DNA of 64,000 nt from Escherichia coli (GTDB taxonomy: Bacteria; Pseudomonadota; Gammaproteobacteria; Enterobacterales; Enterobacteriaceae), in the NCBI RefSeq assembly GCF_024502345.1, contig NZ_JALDNN010000001.1. One strand, 5' to 3'. Below the pieces are notes generated by a model. The model ran no database searches. It was not told the origin of the DNA and was given only the letters and a program-made list of their open reading frames with translations. The stretch's first letter is position 1, and every line of letters begins with the position of its first letter. Of this stretch, positions 1 through 51,950 are shown in pieces. Both the position numbers and the translations under genes were made by a program.

Positions 1-417
1 AGCGGCGGGATCTTCCACGATCTCTACTGCGTGTGGGGCGGTACGGATAAAATCGTCCCGGTGGATGTTTATATCCCTGGCTGCCCGCCAACGCCTGCTG
101 CCACGCTGTACGGCTTTGCAATGGCGCTCGGCCTGCTGGAGCAAAAAATTCACGCCCGTGGGCCGGGTGAGCAGGATGAACAACCGGCGGAGATCCTGCA
201 TGGCGATATGGTGCAGCCGCTGCGTGTGAAAGTGGATCGCGAAGCACGTCGACTGGCGGGTTATCGTTACGGTCGTCAGATTGCCGATGATTACCTTACA
301 CAGTTAGGGCAGGGCGAAGAACAGGTTGCACGCTGGCTGGAAGCGGAAAACGATCCGCGTCTGAACGAGATTGTCAGCCATCTGAATCATGTTGTTGAAG
401 AGGCGCGTATCCGATGA
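1..417 (+). CDS. hycG: Hydrogenase 3 small subunit HycG, 3-prime part (5-prime end outside window)
   Basis: Frame 1 is open from base 1 to the TGA at 415-417; translation matches the HycG C-terminus; followed by hycH and hycI. Confidence 0.85.
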
Positions 418-824
418 GTGAAAAGGTGGTGTTCAGTCAACTGAGCCGTAAATTTATTGATGAGAACGATGCCACGCCCGCCGAGGCGCAGCAGGTGGTC
501 TATTACAGCCTGGCGATTGGTCACCACCTTGGGGTTATCGATTGCCTGGAAGCGGCGCTCACCTGCCCGTGGGATGAATATCTGGCATGGATTGCCACTC
601 TGGAGGCGGGCAGCGAAGCCCGCCGCAAAATGGAAGGTGTGCCGAAATATGGTGAGATCGTCATCGACATTAACCATGTGCCGATGCTGGCCAATGCATT
701 CGATAAAGCCCGGGCAGCGCAAACTTCGCAGCAGAAGGAATGGAGTACAATGCTGTTAAGTATGCTGCATGATATTCATCAGGAAAACGCCATCTATTTG
801 ATGGTGAGGAGACTGCGTGACTGA
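414..824 (+). CDS. hycH: Formate hydrogenlyase maturation protein HycH
   Basis: 136-aa ORF overlapping the hycG stop, recognised as HycH. Confidence 0.85.
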
Positions 825-1287
825 CGTTTTACTCTGTGTTGGCAATAGCATGATGGGTGATGATGGCGCAGGCCCGCTGCTGGCGGAAAAGTGCGCCGCC
901 GCGCCGAAAGGCAACTGGGTGGTGATTGACGGCGGTAGTGCACCGGAAAACGACATCGTCGCCATCCGTGAACTGCGCCCTACGCGGTTACTGATTGTTG
1001 ACGCTACTGATATGGGGCTAAACCCCGGCGAAATCCGCATCATCGACCCGGATGATATCGCCGAGATGTTTATGATGACTACCCATAACATGCCGTTGAA
1101 CTACCTTATCGATCAGTTGAAAGAAGATATTGGCGAAGTGATTTTCCTCGGCATCCAGCCGGATATCGTCGGCTTTTACTACCCGATGACCCAGCCGATT
1201 AAAGATGCGGTTGAAACCGTTTATCAACGTCTGGAAGGCTGGGAAGGGAACGGCGGTTTCGCGCAGTTAGCGGTGGAAGAAGAGTAG
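817..1287 (+). CDS. hycI: Hydrogenase 3 maturation endopeptidase HycI
   Basis: 156-aa ORF recognised as HycI; operon context. Confidence 0.85.
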   Translation: MTDVLLCVGNSMMGDDGAGPLLAEKCAAAPKGNWVVIDGGSAPENDIVAIRELRPTRLLIVDATDMGLNPGEIRIIDPDDIAEMFMMTTHNMPLNYLIDQLKEDIGEVIFLGIQPDIVGFYYPMTQPIKDAVETVYQRLEGWEGNGGFAQLAVEEE

Positions 1288-1329
1288 TTTTTCAGTAAGG
1301 AATCAGGACAGGGATGTTCTTGATGAGGG

Positions 1330-1556
1330 AATCAGAACTGATAGCAAACGCCAGATTGCCCGATGCGCTGCGCTTATCGGGCCTACCTGGTTCGTGCGAC
1401 ACTAGGCCCGATAAGGCATTCATCACGCCGCATCCGGCGCGGTTACTAACTGATGCCAAACGCCAAATTGCCCGATACGCTACGCTTATCGGGCCTACCT
1501 GGTTCGTGCGACATGTAGGCCGGATAAGGCGTTCACGCCGCATCCGGCATGGTTAC
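1330..1556. repeat. REP/BIME palindromic element cluster
   Basis: Repeated GCC(G/T)GATGCGGCGTGAACGCCTTATCCGGCCTAC-type palindromes between convergent hycI and ascB. Confidence 0.7.
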
Positions 1557-4447
<2,891 letters not shown>

Positions 4448-4703
4448 CGGATTTTATCCTGTTATCAGTAGGGTAGATGTAGTTGTTATCAGTCGACGTG
4501 ACGGAAAAATGCCGATGCTGAAACGGAATTAAGAAACCGGTTTCACAAAATCATGAATAGTTGTCACCAAATAAGCAAGAGAGTTAATTGTTCATTTTTT
4601 ATATTTGTGAAACCGGTCACCTGAATATTTTTCCCGCCAATTGCGCAAGGACAATCGGTAAACGGTGCAGTACACTGCGTTGATTGCGTGTAAAGGGATG
4701 AAA

Positions 4704-5717
4704 ATGATGACGACGATGCTGGAAGTGGCGAAGCGCGCCGGGGTTTCAAAAGCGACCGTTTCCCGCGTGCTTTCAGGTAATGGCTACGTCAGCCAGGAGA
4801 CTAAAGATCGCGTGTTTCAGGCGGTAGAAGAGAGCGGTTACCGTCCAAACTTGCTGGCGCGCAATCTGTCGGCGAAGAGTACTCAGACGCTGGGGCTGGT
4901 AGTGACCAACACGCTTTACCACGGCATTTATTTTAGTGAATTACTCTTTCATGCCGCGCGAATGGCGGAAGAGAAAGGGCGGCAGTTGCTATTGGCAGAT
5001 GGTAAACACAGCGCCGAAGAAGAGCGCCAGGCGATTCAGTATCTGCTGGATTTGCGCTGCGACGCCATTATGATTTACCCGCGTTTTTTAAGCGTGGATG
5101 AGATCGATGACATTATTGACGCGCACAGTCAGCCGATAATGGTGCTTAATCGCCGCCTGCGCAAAAATAGCAGCCATAGCGTCTGGTGCGATCATAAACA
5201 GACCAGCTTTAATGCCGTGGCAGAGTTGATAAACGCCGGGCATCAGGAGATTGCTTTCCTTACCGGCTCGATGGATTCCCCCACCAGCATTGAACGTCTT
5301 GCCGGGTATAAAGACGCGCTGGCGCAGCATGGTATTGCGCTCAATGAAAAACTTATCGCTAACGGTAAATGGACGCCTGCCAGCGGGGCCGAAGGGGTAG
5401 AAATGTTGCTCGAACGTGGGGCTAAATTTAGCGCGTTAGTTGCCAGTAACGACGATATGGCGATAGGTGCGATGAAAGCGTTACACGAGCGCGGCGTAGC
5501 GGTGCCAGAGCAGGTGTCAGTTATCGGATTCGATGATATCGCAATTGCCCCCTATATCGTTCCGGCGCTCTCCAGCGTAAAAATTCCGGTGACTGAGATG
5601 ATTCAGGAAATTATTGGACGGCTGATTTTTATGCTCGATGGCGGGGATTTCTCACCGCCGAAAACCTTCAGCGGAAAACTGATCTGCCGCGACTCACTCA
5701 TTGCTCTTTCGCGATAA
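4704..5717 (+). CDS. ascG: LacI-family repressor AscG
   Basis: ORF 4665-5717; N-terminal HTH (MLEVAKRAGVSKATVSRVL); start ambiguous between Met codons at 4704 and 4707. Confidence 0.8.
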   Translation: MMTTMLEVAKRAGVSKATVSRVLSGNGYVSQETKDRVFQAVEESGYRPNLLARNLSAKSTQTLGLVVTNTLYHGIYFSELLFHAARMAEEKGRQLLLADGKHSAEEERQAIQYLLDLRCDAIMIYPRFLSVDEIDDIIDAHSQPIMVLNRRLRKNSSHSVWCDHKQTSFNAVAELINAGHQEIAFLTGSMDSPTSIERLAGYKDALAQHGIALNEKLIANGKWTPASGAEGVEMLLERGAKFSALVASNDDMAIGAMKALHERGVAVPEQVSVIGFDDIAIAPYIVPALSSVKIPVTEMIQEIIGRLIFMLDGGDFSPPKTFSGKLICRDSLIALSR

Positions 5718-5730
5718 ACATTGTCATCAC

Positions 5731-5766
5731 ATGTCATCGTCACTAGTGTCGATGACATCTTTTTTC
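5731..5766 (+). terminator. Rho-independent terminator downstream of ascG
   Basis: 28-bp near-perfect palindrome ATGTCATCGTCACTAGTGTCGATGACAT followed by a T-run. Confidence 0.6.
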
Positions 5767-5865
5767 CTGCATTACAGAAATTAATTTCCTTAAATAACAG
5801 CAAATTAAAAACTGGCATGATTTGTGAATGTATCGGCGCATTAACTGTCATTGCTGGAGAATTTG

Positions 5866-6393
5866 ATGAACCGTTTCATCATTGCTGACGCGAGTAAATG
5901 TATTGGTTGCCGTACCTGTGAAGTGGCGTGCGTGGTTTCTCATCAGGAAAATCAGGACTGTGCATCGCTGACCCCGGAAACATTTTTACCGCGTATCCAT
6001 GTCATTAAAGGTGTGAACATTTCCACGGCGACAGTTTGCCGTCAGTGTGAAGATGCACCGTGCGCTAACGTCTGCCCGAATGGTGCTATCAGCCGTGATA
6101 AAGGGTTTGTTCATGTGATGCAGGAACGTTGCATTGGTTGCAAAACCTGCGTTGTGGCTTGCCCGTATGGCGCGATGGAAGTGGTGGTACGTCCGGTGAT
6201 TCGCAACAGCGGCGCGGGGCTGAATGTACGGGCTGACAAAGCCGAAGCCAATAAATGCGACCTGTGCAACCATCGTGAAGACGGCCCGGCGTGTATGGCG
6301 GCTTGCCCGACCCATGCGCTAATTTGTGTCGATCGCAATAAACTTGAACAACTGAGCGCAGAAAAACGCCGCCGTACGGCGCTGATGTTCTAA
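5866..6393 (+). CDS. hydN: Fe-S electron-transport protein HydN
   Basis: ORF 5851-6393 with multiple CxxCxxCxxxCP ferredoxin motifs; start set at [12 protein letters not shown]. Confidence 0.85.
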
Positions 6394-6545
6394 AAATCTT
6401 ACAGAACTGTTCTGGCATCAAAGGAATTCCCGGAAATATTCGTAGAATACGGAGCGGGCGGTATCGCCGACCTGTGACTGCCGGATGCGACGCTGTCGTG
6501 TCCGGCTGGACGGGTTACGCAATTCATGATGGCGGGAATAACTCA

Positions 6546-8798
6546 ATGGCAAAAAACACATCTTGCGGTGTCCAACTGCGTATTCGTGGCAAAGTGCAGG
6601 GCGTCGGTTTTCGTCCGTTTGTCTGGCAGCTGGCACAGCAATTAAATCTTCACGGCGATGTCTGTAATGACGGCGATGGCGTAGAAGTCCGGCTGCGGGA
6701 AGACCCGGAAACGTTTCTTGTTCAATTGCATCAGCACTGCCCGCCGCTGGCGCGTATTGATAGCGTCGAGCGTGAGCCGTACATCTGGTCACAACTGCCC
6801 ACTGAGTTCACCATCCGCCAGAGCGCGGGAGGTGCCATGAATACGCAAATTGTTCCCGATGCCGCTACTTGCCCTGCTTGCCTTGCCGAAATGAATACCC
6901 CAGGCGAGCGGCGTTATCGTTATCCGTTTATCAACTGTACCCACTGCGGCCCGCGTTTCACCATTATTCGCGCCATGCCTTACGACCGCCCGTTTACCGT
7001 AATGGCGGCGTTTCCGCTGTGTCCAGCCTGTGATAAAGAGTACCGCGACCCGCTCGATCGTCGCTTCCACGCCCAGCCGGTGGCCTGCCCGGAGTGTGGC
7101 CCACATCTTGAATGGGTAAGTCATGGTGAACATGCGGAACAAGAGGCGGCATTACAGGCGGCTATCGCACAGTTAAAAATGGGCAACATTGTCGCCATCA
7201 AAGGGATTGGCGGATTTCATCTTGCCTGCGATGCACGTAACAGTAACGCGGTGGCGACACTTCGGGCGCGCAAACATCGCCCGGCGAAACCGCTGGCGGT
7301 CATGTTGCCAGTGGCTGACGGTTTACCAGACGCTGCGCGCCAGTTGCTTACCACGCCCGCTGCGCCGATTGTGCTGGTGGATAAAAAATACGTACCTGAG
7401 CTTTGTGATGATATCGCCCCTGGCCTTAACGAAGTCGGAGTGATGTTGCCTGCGAACCCGCTCCAGCATTTGCTGTTACAGGAACTGCAATGCCCTCTGG
7501 TGATGACCTCCGGCAACCTGAGCGGTAAACCACCGGCTATCAGCAACGAACAGGCGCTGGCGGATTTGCAGGGCATTGCCGACGGATTCTTGATACATAA
7601 CCGCGACATCGTGCAGCGGATGGATGATTCGGTGGTGCGCGAAAGCGGCGAAATGCTGCGCCGTTCGCGGGGGTATGTGCCGGATGCGCTGGCTTTGCCT
7701 CCGGGCTTTAAAAATGTTCCGCCTGTGCTGTGTCTCGGCGCGGATCTGAAAAATACCTTCTGCCTGGTGCGCGGTGAACAAGCGGTGTTGAGCCAGCATC
7801 TGGGCGATTTAAGTGACGATGGCATCCAGATGCAGTGGCGCGAAGCGTTACGCCTGATGCAAAACATCTACGATTTCACCCCGCAATACGTTGTGCATGA
7901 CGCGCATCCGGGCTATGTCTCCAGCCAGTGGGCGCGCGAAATGAATCTGCCGACACAAACGGTGCTTCATCATCATGCTCATGCGGCGGCGTGTCTGGCA
8001 GAGCATCAGTGGCCGCTGGATGGCGGTGATGTCATTGCGTTGACGCTCGACGGTATCGGTATGGGGGAGAACGGCGCTTTGTGGGGCGGCGAGTGCCTGC
8101 GGGTGAACTATCGCGAATGCCAGCACCTGGGCGGCTTGCCTGCAGTGGCGCTTCCGGGTGGCGATTTGGCGGCGAAGCAGCCGTGGCGAAACCTGCTGGC
8201 GCAGTGCCTGCGCTTTGTGCCGGAGTGGCAGAATTACTCTGAAACGGCAAGTGTGCAACAGCAAAACTGGAGCGTGCTGGCGCGGGCTATTGAGCGTGGA
8301 ATTAACGCGCCGCTGGCGTCATCGTGTGGGCGTTTGTTCGATGCTGTGGCGGCGGGACTGGGCTGTGCGCCAGCCACGTTAAGTTATGAAGGTGAAGCGG
8401 CTTGTGCTCTGGAGGCGCTCGCAGCCTCATGTGACGGAGTGACGCATCCGGTGACGATACCGCTGGTGGACAATCAACTGGATCTCGCCACTTTCTGGCA
8501 GCAGTGGCTGAACTGGCAGGCTTCGGTTAATCAACGCGCGTGGGCGTTTCATGATGCGCTGGCGCAGGGTTTTGCCGCGTTGATGCGTGAGCAGGCCACG
8601 ATGCGTGGTATCACTACGCTGGTATTTAGCGGCGGGGTTATTCATAACCGTTTGCTGCGTGCACGTCTGGCGCATTATCTCGCTGATTTCACATTGCTCT
8701 TTCCACAGAGTTTACCGGCGGGTGATGGCGGTTTGTCTTTGGGGCAGGGGGTTATTGCTGCGGCGCGTTGGTTAGCGGGTGAAGTCCAGAACGGATAA
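6546..8798 (+). CDS. hypF: Carbamoyltransferase HypF (hydrogenase maturation)
   Basis: ORF 6474-8798; start set at [24 protein letters not shown] (acylphosphatase domain), then Zn-finger CxxC pairs; 750 aa. Confidence 0.85.
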
Positions 8799-8819
8799 AA
8801 CGTGTTGCATCTGAACACC

Positions 8820-9120
8820 ATTATTGCCGGATGCGGCATAAACGCCTTATCCGGCCTACACATGCGTCCCCGTAGGTCGGATAAGACGCGCCAGCGTCGC
8901 ATCCGACATTTTGGGCACAGTAGCTGTATGTGACATGAACGCATTATGTGACCAACACATGCGCTCCCCGTAGGTCGGATAAGACGCGTCAGCGTCGCAT
9001 CCGACATTTTGGGCACAGTAGCTGTATGTGACATGAACGCATTATGTGACCAACACATGCGCTCCCCCGTAGGTCGGATAAGACGCGCCAGCGTCGCATC
9101 CGACATTTTAGGCACAGTAG
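8820..9120. repeat. REP-containing tandem repeat array (about 98-bp unit, about 3 copies)
   Basis: The unit GTAGGTCGGATAAGACGCG...CGCATCCGACATTTTGGGCACAGTAGCTGTATGTGACATGAACGCATTATGTGACCAACACATGCGCTCCCC recurs starting at 8872, 8970 and 9069. Confidence 0.8.
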
Positions 9121-9125
9121 CCCAC

Positions 9126-10259
9126 CTACACCGTCAACATTTTCAACAATCCAAATGCCTCTTTCATCCGATCCTCACTGACCACAAAGGCGCGAAGCTG
9201 GTCAGCATCGTCAACGCCGCGCGCCACCATTCCCTGGCGTTCGGTATTAATTTGCCAGCGTAAATCCTGACGCTGGGTTTCGCCTGCCAGATGCAGCGGT
9301 AATTCCGGCGTTTTGATTTTCACCAGCATCGCCGGGAGTTTCAGTGGCGTGTTATTGCCGAGAAGATTTTTTGCCAGCACCATCGCGCTAAGTTGAATCG
9401 GCTGGAGGAACGGCAATACCTGACCGTTAATTTCCGCGCAATCGCCCAGCGCGTAAATATCGGTATTACTGGTTTGCAGATAACTATCGACGCAAACGCT
9501 GCGATTAATCGTCAGCCCGGCGCGTCGTGCCAGGGCGGTTTCCGGGCGCAGTCCGGTGGCGGCAATTACCGCATCCACTTCGATGCTACGCTGGCGGTCC
9601 AGCGTTGCCAGAATGCCAGAATCCGTTTTTTCCAGCCCCTGTAACTGAGATTTCAACAGCAGATGAACGCCCATCTCCGTCAACCGATGCTGCAAGCGGC
9701 TGCTTACTTCCGGTGGCATTAACGACGCCAGAATACTGGCAGCGTTGTCGATTAGCGTGACCGCTTTGCCTGCACGACAAAAATCCATCGCCAGTTCGCT
9801 ACCAATCAAACCACCGCCAACAATCAACACGCGTCGGGCATCCCGCAGTTGCGTTTCACAGGCGCGATACTCTTGCTGACTATTTAACGTCAGCATTAAC
9901 TCACGCCCAGGCACAGGCGGGACAAAGGCACTGGCACCGGTTGCCAGTACTAGCTTGTCGTATTGCCACTGATTATTCTGGCTTTTCACCACACGGGCTT
10001 CGGCATCGATATCCGTCACCCAGGTTTGTGGAAACAGGTGCAGATTAAACTGCTCGGCAAATTCACCCGCCGTCTGGCGGGTAAGGTCATCGGCACGTTG
10101 CCCCTGACTGATAACATGGCTGAGGTCAGGTTTGTTGTACTCATCCATGCTGTCGGCGGCAATCAGGGTTAATGGAATAGTGGCGTCCTGTTTGCGAATA
10201 TTTTTCACCAGTTGGCGGGCGGCGAAGCCCGAACCGATGATCACAATGCCGTTACTCAT
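9126..10259 (-). CDS. norW: NADH:flavorubredoxin reductase NorW
   Basis: 377-aa FAD/NAD(P)-binding ORF (GSGFAA Rossmann motif), overlapping the norV stop. Confidence 0.9.
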
Positions 10260-25699: not shown

Positions 25700-25792
25700 G
25701 GTGAGGTGGCCGAGAGGCTGAAGGCGCTCCCCTGCTAAGGGAGTATGCGGTCAAAAGCTGCATCCGGGGTTCGAATCCCCGCCTCACCGCCA
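25700..25792 (+). tRNA. serV: tRNA-Ser (anticodon GCU)
   Basis: 93-nt cloverleaf GGTGAGGTGGCCGAGAGG...CGCCTCACCGCCA with long variable arm and anticodon loop CCTGCTAAG. Confidence 0.9.
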
Positions 25793-25795
25793 TTT

Positions 25796-25872
25796 GCATC
25801 CGTAGCTCAGCTGGATAGAGTACTCGGCTACGAACCGAGCGGTCGGAGGTTCGAATCCTCCCGGATGCACCA
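25796..25872 (+). tRNA. argV: tRNA-Arg (anticodon ACG)
   Basis: 77-nt GCATCCGTAGCTCAGCTGGATAGAGTACTCGGCTACGAACCGAGCGGTCGGAGGTTCGAATCCTCCCGGATGCACCA. Confidence 0.9.
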
Positions 25873-26007
25873 TATTCTCCGTAACCTTCAGCGATGAAGG
25901 TATGGAAGAGGTGGCGGTACTAACCGCAGGCACCAGGGAGAATAACGTTGCTTTAGCAACGGCCCGAAGGGCGAGCCGCAAGGCGAGTAATCCTCCCGGA
26001 TGCACCA
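25873..26007 (+). repeat. Structured spacer element ending in a tRNA-Arg 3-prime-end mimic (copy 1)
   Basis: 135-nt unit starting TATTCTCCG with four short hairpins and ending GAGTAATCCTCCCGGATGCACCA, duplicating the 3-prime terminus of the upstream tRNA-Arg. Confidence 0.7.
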
Positions 26008-26071
26008 TCTCTTACTTGATACGGCTTTAGTAGCGGTATCAAAAAATCTGCAGTAAAGTAAGTTTCCCGAT

Positions 26072-26148
26072 GCATCCGTAGCTCAGCTGGATAGAGTACT
26101 CGGCTACGAACCGAGCGGTCGGAGGTTCGAATCCTCCCGGATGCACCA
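26072..26148 (+). tRNA. argY: tRNA-Arg (anticodon ACG)
   Basis: Identical 77-nt tRNA-Arg sequence, second copy. Confidence 0.9.
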
Positions 26149-26210
26149 TCTCTTACTTGATATGGCTTTAGTAGCGGTATCAATATCAGCAGTAAAATAA
26201 ATTTCCCGAT

Positions 26211-26287
26211 GCATCCGTAGCTCAGCTGGATAGAGTACTCGGCTACGAACCGAGCGGTCGGAGGTTCGAATCCTCCCGGATGCACCA
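26211..26287 (+). tRNA. argZ: tRNA-Arg (anticodon ACG)
   Basis: Identical 77-nt tRNA-Arg sequence, third copy. Confidence 0.9.
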
Positions 26288-26422
26288 TATTCTCCGAAAT
26301 CTTCAGCAATGAAGATATCGAAGAGGTAGCGGAATTAACCGCAGGCACCAGGGAGGATAACGTTGCGCCAGCAACGGCCCGAAGGGCGAGCCGCAAGGCG
26401 AGTAATCCTCCCGGATGCACCA
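26288..26422 (+). repeat. Structured spacer element ending in a tRNA-Arg 3-prime-end mimic (copy 2)
   Basis: Same 135-nt unit after argZ with a few substitutions. Confidence 0.7.
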
Positions 26423-26485
26423 TCTCTTACTTGATATGGCTTTAGTAGCGATATCAATATCAGCAGTAAAATAAATTTTCCCGAT

Positions 26486-26562
26486 GCATCCGTAGCTCAG
26501 CTGGATAGAGTACTCGGCTACGAACCGAGCGGTCGGAGGTTCGAATCCTCCCGGATGCACCA
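26486..26562 (+). tRNA. argQ: tRNA-Arg (anticodon ACG)
   Basis: Identical 77-nt tRNA-Arg sequence, fourth copy. Confidence 0.9.
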
Positions 26563-26695
26563 TATTCTCCGAAATCTTCAGCAATGAAGATATCGAAGAG
26601 GTAGCGGAATTAACCGCAGGCACCAGGAAGGATAACGTTGCTTTAGCAACGGCCCGAAGGGCGAACGCCAGTGAGTCATCCTCCCGGATGCACCA
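26563..26695 (+). repeat. Structured spacer element ending in a tRNA-Arg 3-prime-end mimic (copy 3)
   Basis: Same unit after argQ; ends GTGAGTCATCCTCCCGGATGCACCA although no tRNA follows. Confidence 0.7.
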
Positions 26696-26842
26696 TCTTC
26701 TCCAAAAAATTTCCTTCAAAAATATCTCATTTTTAAATAACTACTTTATCCATTTCCTGAATTTTCTTCTCCTTCGCCATCAGCGACAAAATCAAGCAAT
26801 TACGCTAAAGTAGCGTCATATTTTTCGACTTGCGAGAAGACC

Positions 26843-29471: not shown

Positions 29472-29544
29472 AAAAAGGCCACTCGTGAGTGGCCAAAATT
29501 TCATCTCTGAATTCAGGGATGATGATAACAAATGCGCGTCTTTC
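29472..29544 (-). ncRNA. micA: Hfq-dependent sRNA MicA (SraD)
   Basis: Reverse complement reads GAAAGACGCGCATTTGTTATCATCATCCCTGAATTCAGAGATGAAATTTTGGCCACTCACGAGTGGCCTTTTT, matching MicA as I recall it, with its terminator hairpin. Confidence 0.9.
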
Positions 29545-36129: not shown

Positions 36130-36225
36130 TGTGGTTTGTAGGCATGATAAGACGCGCCAGCGTCGCATCAGGCATTGTGTACAGAGCGGCGGATGCGGCG
36201 AAAACGCCTTATCCGCCCGAATAAA
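36130..36225. repeat. REP palindromic element
   Basis: TGTAGGCATGATAAGACGCGCCAGCGTCGCATCAGGCA...GGCGGATGCGGCGAAAACGCCTTATCCGCC between ygaY and proX. Confidence 0.7.
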
Positions 36226-51539: not shown

Positions 51540-51950
51540 TGCCGGAGAGCGGCTCCGCCTTATCCGGCCGACATAGATTTATTCCTGTTCACGTACAGAT
51601 TGTCGGATGCGGCGTAAACGCCTTATCCGACCTGGATCCCCGTAGGCCGGACAAGACGCGCAGCGTCGCCTCCGGCATGGGTGCGCCGATTGTCGGATGC
51701 GGCGCAAACGCCTTATCCGACCTACATTTCCGTAGGCCGGACAAGACGCGTAAGCGTCGCCTCCGGCATGGTGCGCCGAATGTCGGATGCGGCGTTAACG
51801 CCTTATCCAACCTACACTCTCGTAGGCCGGACAAGACGCGCAGCGTCGCCTCCGGCATGGTGCGCCGATTGTCGGATGCGGCGTTAACGCCTTATCCGAC
51901 CTACACTCTCGTAGGCCGGACAAGACGCGCAGCGTCGCCTCCGGCATGGG
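51540..51950. repeat. REP/BIME tandem cluster (about 5 units) between gabT and gabP
   Basis: Repeated TGTCGGATGCGGCG(T/C)AAACGCCTTATCCGACCTAC...CGTAGGCCGGACAAGACGCGCAGCGTCGCCTCCGGCATGG units. Confidence 0.8.

Follow-up and report, generated by a model that had tools for sequence, protein, structure and literature searches.

A BIME-2-type REP array with a decayed y REP and strain-variable copy number between the convergent genes hypF and norW of Escherichia coli

In the Escherichia coli DNA analysed here, a stretch of 64,000 nt that we call the window and to which all coordinates refer, the spacer between the convergent genes hypF and norW holds a tandem repeat. This raises the questions of what the repeated unit consists of, how its copy number changes and what the array might do for the two transcripts that meet in it. 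The original prediction described a tandem array of a roughly 98-bp REP-containing unit at 8820-9120, repeated nearly perfectly about three times and made up of a REP palindrome and a non-palindromic tail. It also took copy number to be variable and proposed a run of Tandem Repeats Finder and a comparison of strains. The arrangement, the unit length, the number of copies and the palindrome all agree with what we report below, and the coordinates are correct within a few bases, the actual repeat structure beginning at an intact y-type REP (8826) and ending at about 9122.

Extent and anatomy of the array

Tandem Repeats Finder returned one tandem array, at 8837-9121, with a period of 98, 2.9 copies, 94% matches, 1% indels and a score of 498. 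Three in-register copies, found by a gapless repeat search, start at 8867, 8965 and 9064 (spacing of 98 and 99 nt), and the first two share 99% identity across 98 nt. The match of the third copy covers its z2-type REP and about 16 nt of linker, and then meets the norW stop codon. The palindrome GTAGGTCGGATAAGACGCG...CGCATCCGACAT occurs three times, at 8872-8909, 8970-9007 and 9069-9106. The REP core GTAGGYCGGATAAG has 15 matches in the 64-kb window versus 0.01 expected from shuffles, and the hypF-norW spacer as a whole folds far better than shuffled sequence (z -7.1 and -4.9). The parts of the locus, in order, are these:

6474..8798, plus strand: hypF (carbamoyltransferase HypF), with HypF domains (Pfam); stop codon TAA at 8796-8798
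8789..8812, no strand assigned: weak, REP-like remnant CGGATAAAACGTGTTGCATCTG that runs across the hypF stop and supplies the second hairpin of a naRNA4 match below threshold
8826..8859, minus strand: intact y-type REP (Y0) GCCGGATGCGGCATAAACGCCTTATCCGGCCTAC, with GTAG on the minus strand; hairpin of -19.5 kcal/mol, z -5.1
8860..8871, no strand assigned: 12-nt linker ACATGCGTCCCC, from the CTAC of Y0 to the GTAG of the first z2
8872..8909, plus strand: z2-type REP copy 1, with GTAG and a hairpin of 12/12 stem pairs and an AA/GC internal mismatch; -22.9 kcal/mol on either strand
8910..8969, no strand assigned: tail 1, 60 nt, comprising a linker (8910-8922), the decayed y REP or Y' (8923-8956, CTAC changed to CAAC) and a linker (8957-8969)
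8970..9007, plus strand: z2-type REP copy 2, with one loop difference (C to T at 8989)
9008..9068, no strand assigned: tail 2, 61 nt, identical to tail 1 but for one extra C; decayed y REP at 9021-9054
9069..9106, plus strand: z2-type REP copy 3
9107..9125, no strand assigned: truncated linker TTTAGGCACAGTAGC..., homologous to the starts of the tails; end of the array
9126..10259, minus strand: norW (NADH:flavorubredoxin reductase), with Pyr_redox_2 and Rbx_binding domains of the NorW type; stop codon TAG at 9126-9128

We note that the hypF open reading frame is listed from its first possible start (6474), and that the RefSeq homologue of 2253 nt would place the start at about 6546. The array is extragenic, lying between the stop codons of hypF (8798) and norW (9126), and all three z2 copies in the window have 12 of 12 stem pairs. 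The z2 stem lies 21 nt from the norW stop, and the distance from REP to the hypF stop is 27 nt. The RefSeq annotation of near-identical E. coli genomes has no feature between hypF and norW, the K-12 RefSeq table lists no REP feature there, and our literature search found no paper on the REP array at this locus.

The hypF stop codon sits within the REP-like remnant CGGATAAAACGTGTTGCATCTG, and the hypF coding sequence appears to terminate inside an old REP. Elsewhere in the window, a small REP cluster lies at 1373-1528, and positions 25700-26700 hold a tandem array of five tRNA genes (Tandem Repeats Finder periods of 139 and 275).

Decay of the y REP and turnover of units

The description of the tail as non-palindromic was right in that its hairpin has been lost, but the tail is not unrelated sequence. 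It consists of a decayed y-type REP and linkers, and 46 nt of each tail (8923-8968 and 9021-9066) align in register with the intact y REP and its linker (8826-8871) at 74% identity. To compare units across alleles, we aligned 16 of them from seven E. coli strains (the window, VCSW8, FDAARGOS_943, 88-3493, 2012C-4606, CT30 and 4/4) together with two canonical units of the array at 51.6 kb, between gabT and gabP, for a total of 18 units. The tail core aligns column for column with the y REP, both in Y0 and in the canonical y+z2 units of the gabT-gabP array. Any doubt about this homology is removed by other alleles, in which the left arm of the decayed y is more REP-like (GGCGGATGCGAC vs GCCGGATGCGGC). 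The 98-nt unit is a BIME doublet, composed of an intact z2 REP and a dead y REP, rather than a REP plus an unrelated tail.

Decay of the y REP is seen in its motif, its pairing and its predicted fold. Only 7-8 of 11 stem positions in Y' still pair by register, and CAAC now stands in place of CTAC (which reads GTAG on the opposite strand). The two copies fold at the level of shuffled sequence (-7.6 and -4.1 kcal/mol, z 0.04 and +1.8); Y0 folds at -19.5 kcal/mol (z -5.1), and z2 reaches its -22.9 kcal/mol with z of -4.6 and -4.4 on the two strands. Most of what separates unit 0 from unit 1 falls in y, where 10 of 34 positions differ compared with 2 of 64 elsewhere (Fisher p = 3.5e-4). The same derived y changes are shared by all alleles that we compared, the divergent CT30 and 4/4 types among them, and therefore y decayed once, long ago. 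Since the extra units all carry this same decayed y, units were gained and lost after the decay, and local amplification therefore needs no intact REP doublet.

The left arm of the decayed y in the window (8923-8934 and 9021-9032) reads GCTGTATGTGAC vs the commoner GCTGGATGCGAC. Through the two differences from GCTGGATGCGAC, the left arm in the window has become a direct copy of the right arm TATGTGAC, a change that may have been templated or may have arisen by chance. At 99% identity or more, the tail type of the window occurs in only 27 of 5,426 genomes.

Copy number varies among E. coli genomes from none to five z2 REPs, as had been expected for an array of this kind. Our survey covered 5,426 complete E. 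coli genomes, with allele frequencies that come from summary counts and subtraction and are rough. The locus, searched with a 901-nt query, is present in 5,425 of these, FDAARGOS_943 being the closest. Record spans were about 900 nt (three z2), 799 nt (two), 701 nt (one) or 639 nt. Approximately 14% of genomes have a REP-less alternative spacer or a similar class (770 of 5,425 match the query over less than 80% of its length), about 52% are K-12-like, with a single z2 (by subtraction), and about 34% have two or more. Three or more z2, as in the window, occur in at most 142 genomes (2.6%), and the three-z2 span was found in 15 of the best 60 records.

The 60-nt tail was found in 1,854 genomes (34%), at 1,996 places, with a maximum of four per genome and none on plasmids. 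It was not seen elsewhere as an independent element, and the four places checked by coordinates all lie between hypF and norW. VCSW8 has four tails, all at this locus, and five z2 REPs, the maximum found. The record span of four copies occurs in E9, bR_120_Kylling and GMM060 (sequence-confirmed for E9), and E6 has three tail places, implying four z2 copies. Genomes with four and five copies were read from record spans; the ranking given by a synthetic 7-unit query was confounded, several query units being joined on one subject unit. When one genome per bacterial species was scanned, the tail was found only in Escherichia sp. E1V33, in a three-copy array.

At the lower end of the range, K-12 has a single z2 in a spacer of 127 nt, followed by the terminal-type linker TTTTAGGC. 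We infer that the single z2 of K-12 fits a loss of units by z2-z2 exchange rather than a primitive single-copy state. The 639-nt class (GMF054; L008 288-364, corresponding to window 8770-9125) has an unrelated 77-nt spacer, and the last ~10 codons of hypF are different. In the REP-less allele of GMF054, GGCGGATGTGGCGTAAC looks like a leftover half of a y REP, and CCCTCGCCC/GGGCGAGGG make up a GC-rich hairpin.

Traces of exchange are also visible within the units. In the alignment of 18 units, 97.7% of the cells of the z2 helix are paired. Units 2 and 3 of VCSW8 carry one compensatory change in z2, from C-G to U-A (GACGC/GCGTC to GATGC/GCATC), and one VCSW8 unit has the old left arm but the new right arm. 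This pairing pattern could come from selection on the hairpin or from homogenisation within the palindrome. The window and FDAARGOS_943 show 2 differences over 4500-9021, and diverge by 1-3% from 9022, inside tail 2, to about 20,500. The first four of these differences (9022-9029) make tail 2 identical to tail 1. Because divergence sets in at 9022, within tail 2, the edge of a recombination tract lies inside the array; what looks like a tract of ~11.5 kb extends from 9022 to ~20500, across norW, norV, norR and the srl genes. The edge represents one case, and it may be due to conversion inside the array, to unequal exchange or to the import of an allele.

Most plausibly, the 98-nt direct repeats would be gained and lost through replication slippage or unequal exchange, as is established for short tandem repeats. 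Alternatively, RAYT (TnpA_REP) could act in trans on the intact z2 REPs, as these keep the GTAG and the stem mismatch that TnpA_REP requires in vitro, and models of RAYT-mediated BIME amplification exist (PMC3333891).

Possible roles at two converging 3' ends

The reading that best accounts for the locus, to which we assign a probability of about 0.8, is that of a BIME-2-type array whose copies turn over by slippage or exchange and whose hairpins form a bidirectional barrier in the 3' untranslated region. The convergent transcripts hydN-hypF (plus strand) and norVW (minus strand) both carry the array in their 3' untranslated region, and the z2 hairpin is equally stable on both strands. By analogy with a studied REP array, and in line with what has been proposed for REPs in convergent spacers, the array would most likely act as a partial, largely Rho-dependent, bidirectional transcription barrier and as a block to 3'-to-5' exonucleases, and in this way may curb read-through from hypF and norW and the decay of their transcripts by 3' exonucleases. 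The studied array is REP325, a partial Rho-dependent terminator and mRNA stabiliser (Harris et al., bioRxiv 10.64898/2026.03.23.713779). The same work places about 60% of E. coli REPs between convergent genes, with higher expression of such pairs, and nearly 40% of convergent-gene REPs coincide with mapped bidirectional terminators (bioRxiv 10.64898/2026.03.23.713779). Counting against the stabiliser part of the proposed role, terminal REPs had no general effect on mRNA half-life (Harris et al., bioRxiv 10.64898/2026.03.23.713779). Extra copies would provide more hairpins but probably change little, and are likely near-neutral; with ~14% of genomes REP-less and ~52% holding a single z2, extra z2 copies are dispensable and may be neutral.

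We considered other signals that the array could contain. A scan of the array found no sigma-70 promoter-like site and no intrinsic-terminator-like site, and an intrinsic terminator at the z2 hairpins was rejected, as only ATTTT follows the stem on the plus strand. A sigma-54 promoter look-alike, TTGGGCAC..., has an unfit GG-N10-GC spacing, judged by eye only. Control of translation by the REPs is not expected either: Liang, Rudd and Deutscher reportedly found in 2015 that the translation-coupled effect requires a REP no more than 15 nt from the stop codon, compared with 21 nt for norW and 27 nt for hypF.

The strongest competitor, which we consider less probable than a barrier but a serious contender, is that the array is a neutral or selfish by-product of REP/BIME proliferation and local slippage, has no host role and is harmless in a convergent spacer. 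A copy number of 0-5 and a REP-less allele in ~14% of genomes are what this reading would lead one to expect, as is the finding that each amplified unit has one intact and one decayed REP. In addition, the tail diverges faster than its surroundings in B2-type alleles, at ~85% identity compared with ~93% over the 901-nt locus query (array included). Neutrality accounts less well for a z2 hairpin that is 97.7% paired and has one compensatory change while y decays, although gene conversion could mimic this pattern without selection. It also has to be set against the genome-wide correlation between REPs in convergent spacers and higher expression (bioRxiv 10.64898/2026.03.23.713779).

A role at the level of DNA seems unlikely. 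Here the array would be a strong site of gyrase binding and cleavage that relieves positive supercoils between the converging transcription units. Convergent transcription does concentrate positive supercoiling, and gyrase cleavage sites are over-represented in BIME-2, independently of transcription (PMC6379681). However, the REPs that gyrase cuts are far more often of the y type than of the z2 type (PMC6379681), and at this locus the only intact y is Y0 (8826-8859). The amplified y copies are dead, so that extra units should add little affinity.

More speculative, and in our view decidedly improbable, is the idea that the array works as a strain-variable dial. Selection would have kept the z2 hairpins only, with y allowed or driven to decay, and hairpin number (0-5) would set termination, stabilisation and mutual insulation of hydN-hypF and norVW. 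The array may in addition be a preferred crossover point, an idea that arises because the edge of the ~11.5-kb tract that separates the window from FDAARGOS_943 falls inside it. If a dial of this kind were true, strains would differ heritably in hydrogenase maturation or nitric-oxide detoxification.

We hold it very unlikely that the units are genes for structured small RNAs resembling naRNA4, a nucleoid-associated RNA. The naRNA4 family (Rfam RF02564) matches every unit on the minus strand, with 48.6, 45.6, 43.5 and 36 bits, but all four matches are below the gathering score of 59.5, and no Rfam family reached its threshold in any hypF-norW unit. The Rfam model was built on the y+z2 doublet of REP325. 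In its alignments to the two full units, the z2 hairpin falls on the second hairpin of the model with all pairs intact and the y hairpin is flagged as broken, which explains the sub-threshold scores. An sRNA gene was therefore rejected, there being only these matches and no promoter-like site; moreover, REP325/naRNA4 itself had no measurable effect on nucleoid compaction (Harris et al., bioRxiv 10.64898/2026.03.23.713779). As a separate observation, the window contains the MicA sRNA gene at 29473-29544 (83.9 bits).

Finally, a CRISPR-like array or a protein-coding repeat can be dismissed despite the regularly spaced palindrome and a 146-aa open reading frame (8675-9115, minus strand) that spans the array: the 60-61-nt "spacers" are copies of each other, identical but for one extra C, as the original prediction had argued in setting CRISPR aside, the annotation of a near-identical genome shows no cas genes within 12 kb, a period of 98 cannot be divided by 3, and the open reading frames over the array (146, 43 and 84 aa) have no Pfam match and are absent from the RefSeq annotation.

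Classification and comparison with known arrays

The array is a BIME-2-type REP array of the ordinary E. coli BIME kind, where BIME-2-type refers to its REP types, order and copy variation, and takes in both BIME-2 proper and the atypical BIMEs that differ in their combinations of REPs and of the S, s, l and r linker motifs. REPs and BIMEs are an already known class, with descriptions going back to the 1980s-90s. In BIME-2 elements, the z2+y doublet is repeated several times in tandem, and the copies are well conserved within a locus and variable in number between strains (Ton-Hoang et al., PMC3333891). At hypF-norW, the z2 REPs have the inner GACGC/GCGTC stem, the tandem copies are multiple and vary in number among strains (2.9 here, 1-5 z2 in others), the position is extragenic, and linkers within the array are 12-14 nt long. 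With regard to the alternation of y and z2, an intact inverted y (8826-8859) precedes the first z2 only, and the repeated units hold the homologous decayed y.

Beyond annotation, we give the array little weight, as its class is long known and strain variation is documented behaviour. What is added here is the dissection of one locus, with its unit of z2 and dead y, and a rough census of alleles over 5,426 genomes. The one-sided decay of y is the only feature that is mildly unusual, and units continued to be gained and lost after it. Amplification without an intact doublet is a small piece of evidence on how BIMEs grow, by RAYT or by slippage and unequal exchange.

The suggestion that the array could be REPtron-type was not borne out. 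A REPtron is a gene for RAYT (TnpA_REP, a Y1 transposase) bordered by REP/BIME copies (PMC3333891). No transposase gene is annotated within 12 kb on either side in a near-identical genome, where the genes are hyc, asc, hydN, hypF, norWVR, gutQ, srl, mltB, pncC and recA, and a REPtron is ruled out on this basis. The likeness to REPIN/RAYT systems is partial. Y0 and the first z2 form an inverted doublet that is predicted to fold as one long REPIN-like hairpin (-44.7 kcal/mol, z -5.4), and z2 keeps GTAG and the stem mismatch. Unlike REPINs, however, the amplified units are not intact doublets: the repeated Y' + z2 units fold as the z2 hairpin only, with no long hairpin of the REPIN type, and a RAYT gene is absent nearby. 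Atypical BIMEs (the Bachellier/Gilson classification, summarised in PMC3333891) resemble the array in being multi-copy and in their non-standard combinations of REPs and linkers, but the departure at hypF-norW is the decay of one REP and not a chimera.

Within the window, the closest comparison is the gabT-gabP array (51598-51949), which has the same order of y, linker, z2 and linker, can be aligned column by column and is length-polymorphic. In contrast to the hypF-norW array, both of its REPs are intact, its period is 90 with 3.9 copies, and three of its units pass the naRNA4 gathering score (67-72 bits), whereas no hypF-norW unit does. A gabT-gabP query is 100% identical to FDAARGOS_943 over 951 nt and spans ~680 or ~754 nt in other E. 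coli. A single y+z2 BIME, at 36141-36218, also passes the naRNA4 gathering score (73.5 bits).

REP325 of K-12, between yjdM and yjdN, shares with the hypF-norW array the tandem, head-to-tail arrangement of inverted y/z2 doublets, short linkers, an extragenic position at gene 3' ends and a strain-dependent copy number (PMC3333891). The periods are similar (100 in REP325 and 98 here), and the z2 core is identical at 23 of 24 nt. REP325 has 5.8 copies of y, an 11-nt linker, z2 and a 17-nt spacer, compared with z2, a 14-nt linker, y' and a 13-nt linker at hypF-norW. REP325 comprises 6 doublets and lies between co-directional genes, whereas the hypF-norW array has 3 copies and lies between convergent genes. 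Unlike REP325, the amplified hypF-norW units have lost the y hairpin and its CTAC/GTAG motif, and the array therefore amounts in effect to z2 hairpins repeated directly in one orientation.
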